Assembly (NCBI RefSeq): GCF_964194155.1
Contig: NC_135903.1
Span: forward strand, 30,194,001-30,258,000
DNA: 64,000 nt
Reading direction: 5' to 3'
From: Cetorhinus maximus
Lineage: Eukaryota
How positions within the stretch are numbered: position 1 is the stretch's first letter; each line of letters starts with the position of its first letter. The notes under the pieces were generated by a model. It did not search any database. It worked only from the letters and a program-made list of their open reading frames with translations, and had not been told where the DNA came from. The position numbers and the translations under genes are program-made. This document shows, in pieces, positions 5,098 to 57,425 of the stretch.

Positions 5098-6290
5098 AGT
5101 TAATCCTACCACAAACCACACAAATTCTGCAAACACTATAGTATGAAATAGAATCTTGAATATTGTTTACAGGAAACATTTTACCACAGGCAGGATATTT
5201 ATTTTTTAAGAAAATGACAGACACTTCGTCGTTGGGATCAATTACATGCTGAGGAGATTTACATTAATACCTTAATTCCCTTTGAAAGAATGTAAATGTT
5301 TTATCACAGGTCTGTGTAAAGAGGTACGTGTAACCGGAATAAGACACACCGAAGACAAAACCTCTTTGGTCTGATCTTGTAGGGCTCGTAACATGGCCCC
5401 AATTCTTAATGAAATGGCACCCAATTTAACTTATTTGTTCTGTGGCCTTCATAGACTTCTTAGTCTCAATCCTACAATATAGTTTGATAACAGATTCTAG
5501 TGCATATTTCCAATGACAACGGAGTAGAACATGTGAAAGCATTGAAAATGTACCTTGCCTCAGGCAAGATGGCTTTCACAGGCATACTTAACACTTCATT
5601 ATTTTCAATTATTCTAACTTTAACATGAATAAACACGAGTGGGAGAGTGAACTCAAAGGTTGAAATAATCCATACTTGGCAAGCAAGAGGCTGTTTGCGA
5701 ATGCCTTGTTTTGATTTAATTCTTTCCGTTCAAATACATTAATTATTTTTGAAAAACCACAGTACAATCAGGGAGGTCTGTCTGACAAAGTGAAGATGGG
5801 CTTCAGCCGCGCCTCACTTTTGTGCTAATTGCAGCACTCCCTCATACCAGTTTCAGATCGATAGATACTTGCACGATACAAAGAAAGGCAGTTTGTCTAT
5901 GCAGATCTGAAAGGAAACTTTAAAACGAGAGTTTCATGCTTAACACAATGTAACATATCCCTGCAACATTTTCTACCTGTTCCCAGCCCTGTCACAACAA
6001 TGTTAAGCCATTTCTTAACACTTGTACCACTTGACTTAAACTTCTAAACCTTCATATTTTTCTTTATACCTTTATCAAATACTCAGAGGGAAGGTCTCTC
6101 GCTTCTGAGTCAGAAGACTGATTCTCCAGAGTGCTGCACTGTAAGCTCCTGTCTTTCAGGTGAGACATTAAACAGGTGTCCTGTCTGCCCTATCAGGTGG
6201 ATATAAAAGGTCCTGCAGTACTATTTTGAAGCAGAGCAAGGGAATTTTCCTTAGTGTGCTGCAAAATATTTATCCTTCAAGCAACATAAT

Positions 6291-34056: not shown

Positions 34057-34749
34057 ATGTCAGATACCCAGCTGAAAACGTCTTTTATTGAAAGCCTCAA
34101 AACTCCAACCTGCAAATTGCAGCTCCAAACTGCAATTTCACCAGCATTCCAATCTGTGTTCAAACGCAAAGTTATTTTATAGAACCGAAGAAAAAGGCAA
34201 AAATACAAAAGCAAAACACCACGGGTGCTGGAAGCCTGACCAAAGGTCATCAAACTGAAAAACTCTTTCTCGCTCCATAAATGCTTTTCATTTTAAAAAG
34301 GCAACATAAAACTGACAGCAAGGTGGTTTTTGGAATTTATGATCTCACAAAATTCCTGCAAGCAATGGGTACATAGATCAAACTTGCACAAAATGAGTAC
34401 TTCTGCTGCAAGAACACTAGCAGCTCTGTACATACAAACATGGGATAGAACTTTTCTGAAGGGCAAGATAACAATTATTTAATTAACTCCTAGTTCAGTA
34501 TTGGCATGTTGGAAAAAGTTAGGAAAGAATGAGACTTTGTTCGGCCCCTAGAGACATGCTTTTGCATTTAGCATTTAGAACTTAGAATTGTAGATCTCTA
34601 GGGCCACACACATCCCATTAATTATTTCTTATTCTATTTTAAAATGTTATTCATGCTTCACTCTCATATTCTAATTCTTCTAGGCCTCTTGCTTTCTTAT
34701 TTAACTTTTTACAGTTGGGTTCTTCAGAAATTACATTCACATTTTATAA

Positions 34750-34852
34750 TCTCTGAAGAAGGGTCATACGGACTCGAAACGTTAACTCTGTTTCTCTCTC
34801 CACAGATACTGCTAGACCTGCTGAGTTTTTCCAGCATTTTCTGTTTTTGTTA
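34750..34852 (+). mobile_element. 103-bp hammerhead-bearing Penelope-derived mini-element with a 12-bp TSD
   Basis: TSD CACATTTTATAA at 34738-34749 and 34853-34864; body homologous to 2118-2215. Confidence 0.88.
34753..34787 (+). ncRNA. Minimal hammerhead ribozyme motif, canonical core
   Basis: CTGAAGA-A-GGGTC-atacg-GACTC-GAAA-C-GTT-AACT. The 5' strand of helix I is largely lost at the insertion junction. Confidence 0.75.
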
Positions 34853-35190: not shown

Positions 35191-35533
35191 AAGTTACTGT
35201 ATATTTTGGCACACATTTTCCAGAGCTGGATGCTCTCATACAGAGTTTATGAAGACGTGCATCCTGACTGAACAATGTCCGTGGAAGGATTGTATTGCCA
35301 CATCTCCTAATTGTACTGGAAGTGATTCAGGTTGGCATCAGAGGCAGACCCTTTATCCCCGAGTTCTGGGACTAGATATTCCCATCCCAAATCAGGATGG
35401 AATGGGAGCGGGACTGGAAAAAAAAATGGCTCCAGGGACCTTGCATGCACGGTCTGCCGCCTCCATTCCCTATTCTGATGATTTTCCAAGGACAGGGGAA
35501 GAGCAGGGGCGAGCAGGAGAGTGAAGTCTCCTT

Positions 35534-35669
35534 AATATAAAAGCAAAATACTGCGGATGCTGGAAATCTGAAACTAAAACAAAAATTGCTGGGAAAGCCC
35601 AGCAAGTCTGACAGCGTCTGTGGAGAGAAAGAGCCAACGCCCCGAGTCCAGATGACTCCTCCCCAGAAC
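35534..35669 (-). mobile_element. 136-bp Penelope-derived hammerhead mini-element, A-to-G mutated, with a 12-bp TSD
   Basis: TSD TGAAGTCTCCTT at 35522-35533 and 35670-35681. The reverse complement aligns with 2115-2250 and 34750-34852. Confidence 0.88.
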
Positions 35670-37054
35670 TGAAGTCTCCTTCCTCATTGGCTGGATGGAT
35701 CAAGGTCGTAGGGAGCTCATTAAGAGCTCGCCCTCTGAATTCTGGTATTTTCATAGGGTGAATGGCTGTTAAGAGCTCCCTGAGGCTGACCAGCGGCTAC
35801 TTGGTGGGAACAGGGCCATTGATACAGTTTTATTTAATGCAAAAAAGTGAAAGCTTGAATAAAAGCTACTGAGCAGTGATAAATTTTTACTACCAAGCCT
35901 TTCCCTACCCTATCCCTGTCTCTCCATTAGACAATTTGAAGATGAAGATCCTTTCATTTCTTTAAGGGCACACACAGATGACGTCCACAGCAATGTCTGC
36001 CGATTCAGGCAAGAATGTGGCCCATCTGTTCTGCCTCCATTTTTTCATCCCTTCGTAACCCCAGGCACTAACTGAGCAGGAGAGCCATGAAAGTCATTCT
36101 TCACGGCACGCTGGAGATGGAGCCAGAACCAAACCCACCTCCCGATTCCTGCCTCCAACAGAAAAATCCTGCCCCTGGAGCTGGTTATGGCCCCTTTGGA
36201 TTTGGCCCCTTTATACTGGCAGCCGTGTTAGTTGGGTTGGTGCTCCTCATGATTTATTTGGCCTGTTTCTTAATGAGATTGTGGTGTCACTGCATGGATG
36301 ACTGGCATTAGAAAAGGAGTTTTTCAGTTTTAAATTGGAAACAAAACATTTGTGTTCTTGTTGCTCTGTAATATTAGAAATGATCATATTTTTACAAAAT
36401 AGCTCTGACTGGTAGTGAAAAATGATGTTAATACACAGGTAATGCCTTCATTCAAACAGGGGACAAAAGAATTTCATAGACATGTATTAGCACATTCATT
36501 ACTAATCCCCCACAGCCCAATTCATCCAAATGAAAGATAAGAGTATATTTCAGTAACTGACACTCCTGACATGGAGTTTTGCCCTATGGAACTGTGTATT
36601 AGAAATTAATATACATCATCCTCTTGATTTCCCACTCATTCATTTAAATGTTTGTGATAAGGATGTGTGTGATGATGTGGTTGGAGTACAATATCTTTAT
36701 CAAATGTGTGTGCCCCAGTCATTATTTTCTTATTTGTATTTATTGATTTGATGTAGGAGCTCATATGCAGATAAGTGGCAACTTAAACAGGTACCTTGTT
36801 ACTCCAGAGATGTAAAATGCTAGAATATCCATTATTTGCATTCCACATATAGCATCAAGCATTACCTTCTTGCTTCCTCTGTTGATCTGCTTCACTCTCC
36901 ACAGGCCTGCCCCATATTGTGACCCAGATAAGTTGAAGTTTTCTACAGATGAATGTCAGCGAGACCAAAGCTAAGACCCCATCTTGTTGGACGCTGCCAG
37001 CACTGTGTATCACAGGTCTTCATTCCCCACTGTCAAAGGGATAATTCCAGAAGT

Positions 37055-50400: not shown

Positions 50401-52072
50401 ATTTATCAGCTTTCAATCCCATTAATTTCTCCAGCACTTTTTTTTTAGTAATATTAATTCCCTTCAATTCCTCCTTCTCACTAGACCCTTGATTCCCCAG
50501 TGTTTCTGGGGAGTTATTTGTGTCTTCCTCCGTGAAGAAAGAACTAAAGTAGTTATTGAATTGCTCTGCCATTTCCTTGTTCTCTATTATAAATTCTCCC
50601 ATTTTGGACTGTAAGGGACCTACATTTGTCTTCACCAATCTTTTTCTTCTTCCATACTTGTAGAAGCTTTTGCAGTCCTCTTTTATGTTCCTTGGAAGTT
50701 TACTCTCATACTCTACTTCTCCCCTCTTAATCAATCACTCGGTCCTTCTTTGCTGAATTCTAAACTGCTCCCAATCCTCAGGCTTGCTACTTTTTCTAGC
50801 AACTTTATATGACTCCTCTTTGAATCTAATACTATCCTTAATTTCTATTGTTAGCCATGGCTGGGGTCACTTTTGTGGTTGTGTTTCTGCACCAGTTGCA
50901 ATGCATACATTCATTCTTTAAATATTAGCCATTGCCTATCCACTATCGTGCCTTTTAATGAAGTTCCCCAATACAACTTAGCCAACTCATGACTCATACC
51001 ATCGTAGTTTCCTTTGTTTAGATTTAAGACCTTAGTTTTGGATTGACTACTAGTATTTGGACTACTTCACTTTCCAACCTAAGGAAAAAGTCTATCATGT
51101 TATAGTCACTGTTCCCTAAAGGACCCCACACAACAAGTTTACTAATTAACCCCTTCTCATTGCACAAAACCAAATCTAGGATAGCCTGTTCCCTAGTTAG
51201 TTCCTCTACGTACTGGTCTAAAAACCACCTCGTACACACTCCAGGAATTCATCTGCCACAGCATTATTGCTAATTTGGTTTGCAAATGTAGATTAAAGTC
51301 ACCCATGATTATTATAGCACCCTTGTTACACGCATCTCTATTTTCCTGTTTAATGTCATCTCTTACCTTACCGCTACTGTTTGGAGGCCTACAGACAGCT
51401 CCCACTAATGTTATTTGGCCCTTGTTGCTTCCTAGTTCCACCCAGACTGACTCTGCATCTAGATTTTCTGAGCCAATATCCTCTCTCACTATTGCACTGA
51501 TTTCATCCTTAACTAACAATGCCACACCATCTCCTTTTGGTCCTTCTTAAATATAGAATACTCTTGGATATTCAGTTCCCAGCCTTGGTCATCCTGCAGC
51601 CATGTCTCTGGAATCACAATCATATCATACCCATTTACACCTATTTGTGCTGTTAATTCATCTACCTTATTGCGAATGCTCCATGCATTCAGATAGTGCC
51701 TTTAAATGTCTTTTTACACATCTTTTTTAAAAAGACGAGTCTAAAGGCACTGTATCTGAATGCACAGAGCATGCGCAATAATGAGGAGCTGGTCCACCTT
51801 CAGTTTGTGGTGATAGCGCTGGCATGCCAACGCCATCGAGGTCAACACTGGTAGGACGGCAGCTGCCATGGAGACCTTGGTCCAGGATGTCGACCCTGCA
51901 CTGCTGCATGGGCTGAACTCCATCACTGATGCCATAGTTGGCCTCCAACAGTGGGTACAAGAGAGGGGTGTGGGGCAGCTCGACAGATTCCCCTTCTCCT
52001 CAAGGAATCAGCCAGGGGCTCTTGGGCACCCATAGGGAGGAGGATCAGCATGGGCCATCCACCCAGGCATTA
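47405..52072 (+). mobile_element. Harbinger fragment with a Myb/SANT gene, interrupted by CR1 at 48825-51779
   Basis: MAPKDKKTAAPRFNNASLKQLLDAVEARHDVLYP..AWEAVAAMVSANALQTRTATQCHKRM. First donor mutated (ATAAGT). Exon 2 DKLAHNKRERSQTGG. Coding-like sequence resumes after 51780. Confidence 0.85.
48825..51779 (-). mobile_element. CR1 LINE covering most of ORF2 (endonuclease + RT), decayed
   Basis: VALLVK, ESVWVEL, CRPPNS, MGDFN, AILDLVL, KSPGPD, YLDFQKAFDKVPH, RPHLDYCVQFWSP. (GAAACATA)n tail at the left; TSD AATG(G)AGGA at 48816-48824 and 51780-51787. Confidence 0.96.
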
Positions 52073-56805: not shown

Positions 56806-57425
56806 AGTGCAAACTGGAGGAACAGCACCTCATCTTCCGACTAGGCACTTTACAGCCTTCCGGGCTGAATATTGAATTCAACAACTTCAGATCTTAAACT
56901 CCCCCTCCCCCCATCCCCACCCCGTTTCTTCTCCCACCCCCCCCACACCCCCCCCCCCACCCGCTTTTTTTTTCAATATTTATATAGATTCTTCTTTCCC
57001 CACCTATTTCCATTATTTTTAAATCTAAAACTAAAACCTTGTTAGCCTTTCCACCCCACCCCCACTAGAGCTGTACTTTGAATATCCTGTCTTCCATTCT
57101 TAATTAGCACTTTTCTCAGACAAAACACCTCTTTGACCCTTTTGTCTGTGACATCTTTTGATTATCTGCTCATCTCCACAATCACCACACCCTCAATGTC
57201 TCTCTCTCCCCCCACACACCCCCCCCCCAACCCACCTTAAACCAATTTATATTTCTCCCTTCTTCTAACTATGCTTCAGTTCTGCCGAAGGGCCATGAAG
57301 GCTCGAAACGTTAACTGATTTCTTCTCCGCCGATGCTGCCAGACCTGCTGAGTTTTTCCAGGTAATTCTGTTTTTGTTTTGGATTTCCAGCATCCGCAGG
57401 AGCTTTTAGCTTTTTGTTTTTATAC
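56806..57425 (+). mobile_element. Solo Penelope family A pLTR with an 8-bp TSD
   Basis: Encodes CKLEEQHLIFRLGTLQPSGLNIEFNNFRS*; homologous to 1651-2253; TSD TGCAATGG at 56798-56805 and 57426-57433. Confidence 0.92.
57276..57318 (+). ncRNA. Minimal hammerhead ribozyme motif (variant core CUGCCGA)
   Basis: TCAGTT-CTGCCGA-A-GGGCC-atgaa-GGCTC-GAAA-C-GTT-AACTGA, with a 6-bp helix I. Confidence 0.72.

Follow-up and report, generated by a model that had tools for sequence, protein, structure and literature searches.

What process changed nine adenosines to guanosines, eight of them within 30 nt, in a single short retroelement copy in the genome of Cetorhinus maximus? The copy occupies positions 35534-35669, minus strand, of the 64,000-nt stretch of contig NC_135903.1 that was analyzed (the window), and a first-pass annotation had described it as a possible fossil of ADAR hyper-editing in which clustered A-to-G changes erased a ribozyme core. 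Including its tail, it measures 136 nt and is a solo pseudo-LTR (pLTR) from a Penelope-like element, with matches of 84-90% genome-wide. The minus strand reads as the annotation gave it, and the 12-bp target-site duplications (TSDs) at 35522-35533 (element 3′ end) and 35670-35681 (element 5′ end), both on the plus strand, are identical. The tail of ~35 nt (35534-35570, minus strand), which had been described as nearly unmutated together with the TSDs, indeed contains no A>G change.

The annotation had counted 8 A-to-G changes in 35 nt against the pLTR at 34753. This neighbor (34752-34851, plus strand) lies tail-to-tail with the copy at a distance of 680 bp, has a 12-bp TSD of its own, and belongs to another subfamily; for this reason, the 29 closest genomic copies and, separately, a local consensus of nine neighbors were used instead. 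The cluster stood and the comparator did not: against either reference, the copy has nine A>G, three T>C, one C>T, and one T>A changes, and the 29-copy reference gives one further difference at the penultimate base. Eight of the A>G changes are confined to 35634-35663 (at 35663, 35662, 35659, 35642, 35641, 35640, 35635, and 35634); position 35599 holds the ninth. The remaining differences, T>C at 35616, 35597, and 35593, C>T at 35605, and T>A at 35575, are at about background level. With a control rate of 3.6%, the binomial probability of nine or more G among 29 A positions is 5e-7, or 0.04 when multiplied by the 70,677 copies that match the family motif, a calculation that ignores age differences between copies. 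The T>C changes (3 of 52 Ts, P=0.19) are unremarkable. Three of the nine edits follow a G.

The annotation had named reads and identical copies as evidence that could tell against editing. Contigs from two sequencing runs carry the eight core Gs. That of run X3, which is possibly the assembly's own sample, spans 35603-35950 with no differences, while that of run X12, which has a different species label, spans 35606-36000 with 11 differences, none of them at the eight core sites; the ninth site is outside both contigs. Raw reads of run X21 barely cover the unique part of the locus. An assembly error is unlikely to be behind the cluster. Since the X12 contig shares the core Gs, the cluster is real and predates the split from that species, although this sharing alone does not date it to the insertion. 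No identical copy was found among the best 40 of 1441 candidates, in which other matches were at best 84-90% identical, and a search for the source locus of the copy found none.

The copy is a pLTR fragment of an EN+ Penelope-like element. In longer relatives, coding sequence for a reverse transcriptase (RT) and a GIY-YIG domain lies upstream of the pLTR on the same strand, and the hammerhead motif has the same sense as the open reading frame; the solo copy lacks this coding part. Pfam matches were weak: RVT_1 in L264 (E=8e-4, below the cut-off) and GIY-YIG in L122 (E=1.3e-4, at the cut-off), with none for the protein of the third relative, so that two of three proteins were matched. Head-to-head pairs number 30 among 152 control copies, and a one-sided tail is common in the family and present in the copy at 35534-35669. 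These traits match the EN+ Penelope-like layout of RT with a C-terminal GIY-YIG, an inverted arm, and a one-sided tail that is set out in the available text of PMC8557442.

Other members of the family are found in the window. Long inverted arms at 20-454 and 1641-2079, 93-97% complementary, stand directly upstream of a pLTR at 2116, and the three together are probably one inverted Penelope insertion. The copies at 2116-2253 and 57281-57414 (both plus strand) have non-canonical cores with A6 as U or C, which are common subfamily traits. At 34202-34239 (minus strand), the family is represented by an isolated tail alone. Separately, a hairpin at 51659-51788 (plus strand) has a weak miRNA-model score (40 bits against a gathering threshold of 90) and is probably a palindromic repeat.

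The eight clustered changes fall in a hammerhead motif at 35632-35670 (minus strand), which is of the minimal type-I kind described in PMC4209133, as far as the accessible text goes. The unedited family motif occupies the 5′ 40 nt and has a 4-bp stem I, a 5-bp stem II, and a palindromic ACGU helix III. Its stem cells are paired in 94.9% of cases versus 21-49% in slid controls (24 distinct rows); covariation in the stems was not above that of shuffles (88/500), and an Rfam scan gave no hammerhead match. The nearest subfamily of the copy keeps an intact core. In the copy itself, the core sequence CUGANGA, GAAA, and UH is gone, with A6, A13, A14, and A15.1 reading G. In minimum-free-energy folds, the unedited relative forms both stems, whereas the edited copy retains stem II and loses stem I. 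Since four core As read G, the motif of this copy is predicted to be inactive, and its loss would be a by-product of editing and not its target. An edited core is not expected to block copying, because cleavage by the hammerhead was dispensable for insertion in vitro according to the available text of PMC11167929. The same text reports that one Penelope element primes internally at two sites, which define the tail.

Exact motif counts were made over the whole genome. A fully degenerate core gives 70,677 matches, so that the family has at least this many copies. The UUAA pair reads GG in 116 motif matches, and the last two As of GAAA read G in 129, with seven matches to a backwards control. All five As of GAAA and UUAA read G at five places versus 0.0002 expected from independent control rates; the four such copies other than that at 35534-35669 differ from it in subfamily traits. 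By hand count, a further G occurred in GAAA in 36 of the first 100 TTGG matches, in 3 of 100 CCAAC matches, and in 0 of 100 unselected ones (compared by Fisher tests).

For substitution rates, a selected set was assembled from 79 of the 116 TTGG matches and 56 GAGG copies, the latter from 59 further GAGG matches of the 129. Copies with fewer than 66 aligned bases were left out (3 of 59 GAGG copies and 8 of 160 controls), and 8 of the 135 selected copies were removed as duplicates or twin arms. This left 127 independent copies, which belong to several subfamilies, and 152 controls, all located in the initial 3.3 Mb of a single contig; in 41 flank copies taken from other places, the A>G rate was 4.2%. 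As each copy had been picked for one AA>GG pair, rates were compared outside the picking motif. There, A>G changes amount to 219/1830 (12.0%) in the selected set versus 79/2196 (3.6%) in controls (p=3e-24). T>C stands at 101/4622 versus 163/5590, A>C at 4 versus 11, and T>G at 21 versus 35 changes, and flank GC content is 0.432 versus 0.427. With the picked sites counted, 54 of the 127 copies have at least five A>G changes. With no increase in T>C, A>C, or T>G, two explanations are excluded for the class: symmetric mutation and GC-biased gene conversion (gBGC), the latter kept by the annotation as an alternative.

Two counts of the opposite change deserve mention. In the GTTAAC palindrome, a strand-symmetric count of 116 AA>GG against 207 TT>CC opposes editing at face value; it is confounded, since one of the T>C changes is a common subfamily trait, and it was replaced by the co-occurrence and outside-motif tests. 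A set picked for T>C, of which 28 of 56 matches were analyzed, had a T>C rate of 8.7% versus 2.9%, with other changes also raised, as in older copies, and only single copies in it (with 23 and 16 T>C changes) are convincing. At L301:1446-1614, one arm has 23 T>C changes in the element sense that extend past its present partner, and no edits are seen in the other; the arms seem to derive from different templates. Two A>G changes in the motif distinguish the subfamily comprising L123, L124, L061, L062, and L064 from sister subfamilies, and it is a matter of speculation that an edited template may have founded this subfamily. One variant motif has 11 identical matches within 1.8 Mb (G000:C22:3.48-5.31 Mb), which suggests a locally amplified unit.

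The sequence context of the changes agrees with editing by ADAR. In the selected copies, A>G is lowest after G (75/867, 8.7%) and higher after A (26.6%), C (20.6%), and U (18.3%), while the corresponding control rates are flat at 2.8-3.8%. Outside the picking motif, the rate after G is 9.7% versus 14.8-19.1% after other neighbors (p=4e-6). This avoidance matches the published ADAR preference, in which upstream G is depleted (available text of PMC4365171 and PMC2873906). The pooled set departs from a textbook ADAR pattern in that 5′ U is not the best neighbor and the 3′ neighbors rank as G (18.4%, barely above A), A (18.1%), C (16.5%), and U (9.8%). One hot spot is the A in the TCAGA context, which is changed in 51/126 cases. 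Strand bias toward A>G over T>C and depletion of 5′ G were two of the checks that the annotation had recommended, and both came out on the side of editing.

The extent of editing along the element indicates the kind of duplex involved. The A>G rates in three successive parts of the body are 12.2%, 18.1%, and 12.8%, and the rate in the tail is 2.0% (6/293) versus 2.7% (10/369) in control tails, so that the tail is spared genome-wide as it is at 35534-35669. Such a range would be expected of pairing with an inverted arm that has no tail. Because editing extends far past the ribozyme, peaks just downstream of it, and ends at the tail, the duplex was likely a long hairpin of inverted pLTRs. Of the two sources of double-stranded RNA that the annotation had offered, inverted pLTRs are, thus, retained, and a palindromic hammerhead dimer is rejected, since editing peaks downstream of the hammerhead (18.1% versus 12.2%). 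The hammerhead core is not specially targeted. As for the enzyme, the adenosine-deaminase family PF02137, which includes ADAT/ADAD-type paralogues as well, has 27 exon-level matches in the genome.

Inverted pairs allow the timing of the changes to be examined. Among 46 pairs in the selected set, the partner carries both picked Gs in 31, a mirror-type change in 2, and neither in 13. Further changes shared by the arms comprise 78 A>G versus 12 T>C, compared with 4 versus 8 in 30 control pairs. Since the arms share Gs, these were likely present in the template before the two arms were made. Shared Gs could also come from a source element that had been edited beforehand or from conversion of one arm by the other. 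A mirror pattern, with A>G along one physical strand through both arms, is seen at L087, L167, L034, L032, L221, L282, and L281, and an unedited source is present for both of the mirror loci whose junctions were searched (two of the seven).

Two daughter and source pairs provide the closest view. L304 is a 1068-bp, 5′-truncated copy of L303, 78 kb apart, that ends in a LINE-type tail and has a TSD of only a 7-bp match. On the strand that ends in this tail, 15 of 42 As changed in the paired arms versus 2 of 306 in unpaired sequence, including 0 of 33 in an A-rich unpaired stretch. The second daughter, L305, lies on a different contig from its source, L306; the copy measures 7.7 kb, has a 10-bp TSD, and carries a LINE-type tail on its minus strand. 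Relative to L306, L305 has T>C changes on the plus strand, which correspond to A>G on the RNA strand, at 17 of 56 positions in the arms, 63 of 1199 in unpaired parts, and 0 of 17 in the tail. As directly as genome sequence can, these pairs show a route from an edited hairpin RNA through reverse transcription to a new locus. A third junction match, L302, proved not to be a source. Toward the far end of the L305 copy (L308, ~5300-5445), there is a second one-strand cluster of 14 T>C changes, for which no inverted partner was found in the 20 kb examined. Some edited loci have been duplicated locally, including L167 and L168 (~100 kb apart) and L186-L188 (40-110 kb apart). At L167, ~780 bp separate the A>G arm from the T>C arm, which is embedded in a LINE-like fragment that has its own, imperfect TSD.

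Taken together, it is very probable that ADAR deaminated a fold-back RNA of the element at 35534-35669 and that the inosines were copied as G at a germ-line insertion. The annotation's central claim of ADAR-type editing before integration is well supported by strand-specific A>G, 5′-G depletion, the lack of an effect on flank GC, and contig support. The duplex would have formed in a transcript that read through two head-to-head pLTRs, the second of them tailless, and ADAR would be the enzyme that edited it. Reverse transcription would then have run from the tail as far as the 5′ edge of the hammerhead, with the reverse transcriptase reading inosines as G during insertion in the germ line. The editing may have occurred on the template of this copy itself or one round before. 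Fixation in the genome would in turn imply ADAR activity in the germ line.

Of the competing explanations, burst-like misincorporation by RT has the highest probability and is still improbable. An imbalance of dNTPs, for example, could place C opposite template A on occasional molecules, and the outcome would likewise be strand-specific, older than the insertion, and common to both arms; the preference of the edits for A runs (5′ A, 26.6%) would also fit. What it fails to account for is confinement to paired arms, given the unchanged A-rich unpaired stretch of L304 (0/33) and tail of L305 (0/17), and it leaves unexplained why Penelope pLTRs and LINE-carried hairpins bear the same mark.

Slightly less probable again is a change at the locus after insertion, in which either an edited read-through transcript was written back or the DNA was deaminated within an RNA:DNA hybrid. 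The copy does have an inverted relative 680 bp away, and mirror-edited hairpins with a single TSD do exist (with sources sought for two of seven). However, that relative has no T>C or A>G changes, and, as the mirror T>C changes are missing there, editing in place is unlikely and local pairing with the copy at 34752 is rejected. Moreover, a separate source without edits exists for each of the two mirror cases tested, and the core Gs are already common to a second species label.

A similarly small probability goes to a third explanation, in which the cluster stems from ordinary mutation of DNA, from GC-biased gene conversion, or from chance extremes in a very large family. The family has at least 70,677 copies, independence predicts ~21 of the 129 GG pairs in GAAA, and the copy at 35534-35669 has three T>C changes besides its A>G cluster. 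For the class, this explanation is refuted by the unraised rates of T>C, A>C, and T>G, the near-equal flank GC, the five five-site copies, and a polarity that tracks the RNA strand; for the copy taken alone, the corrected chance is the ~0.04 given above. Least probable of all is that the copy belongs to a small subfamily of the ordinary kind or that its bases are an artefact of sequencing or assembly, since, although A/G and T/C variants do occur in the motif at the subfamily level and the DNA search scored only the best 40 of 1441 candidates, the other four five-site copies differ in subfamily traits and the bases are present in contigs of two species labels.

Beyond the single locus, it is somewhat more probable than its opposite that ADAR has been a source of heritable, structure-guided mutations in non-LTR retroelements in the germ line of this vertebrate, and that its edits serve as single-molecule barcodes of element arms. 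If so, any fold-back Penelope stump in a mobilized RNA, whether driven by Penelope or LINE machinery, would be open to editing and fixation. The barcodes would show that a single RNA molecule was the template for both arms of a typical inverted insertion, or that the cDNA of one arm served as template for the other, and would constrain an open step of Penelope transposition. A-to-I editing is usually transient. Here, dozens of non-LTR copies apparently carry it as a fixed part of inherited DNA, which would make them the ADAR counterpart of APOBEC fossils. They provide a dated record of editing in the germ line, and the edits that two arms have in common offer a test of how Penelope builds inverted insertions. 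The copy at 35534-35669 is itself inert. The class is rare, with 116 and 129 motif matches that partly overlap and are not all edited among 70,677, and has therefore had little effect on the composition of the genome.

The literature searched, which took in a minority of subscription papers, gave no report of Penelope or LINE copies that were edited by ADAR and became fixed in genomes. The term "ADAR" does not occur in the text of PMC4866542 or in a 2026 retrozyme preprint, and one reporter study of human L1 RNA observed no editing, according to the accessible text (PMC5224506).

Several known systems resemble the present one in part, as far as the available texts describe them. EN+ Penelope-like elements (PMC4209133, PMC8557442, and PMC11167929) have in common with this family an RT with a C-terminal GIY-YIG, a minimal hammerhead in the pLTR, an inverted, 5′-truncated arm, and a tail of 30-40 nt on one side. 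They differ from the copy at 35534-35669 in that its hammerhead core is destroyed, and template editing is not mentioned in those parts of the papers. ADAR hyper-editing of inverted-repeat transcripts (PMC4365171) likewise yields dense, one-strand A>G changes in paired repeats with depletion of upstream G. There, the changes are seen in RNA reads, whereas here they are in genomic DNA, and enrichment of downstream G is weak. The avian retroviral sequences RAV-1 and ALV, which were reported as A>G hyper-edited (Felder 1994; Hajjar and Linial 1995, both cited in PMC8586724), share ADAR-linked edits that were fixed in DNA via reverse transcription. Those are retroviruses; in contrast, the edits described here are inherited in endogenous Penelope-like and LINE-type retrotransposons, and those of the copy at 35534-35669 are common to two species labels. 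Finally, APOBEC-edited LTR retrotransposons of vertebrate genomes (PMC4866542 and PMC2873906) are comparable as deaminase clusters fossilized in rare retroelement copies. In that case, the changes are G>A and arise by deamination of cDNA in LTR elements, while in this family they are A>G, depend on structure, and reside in non-LTR elements.
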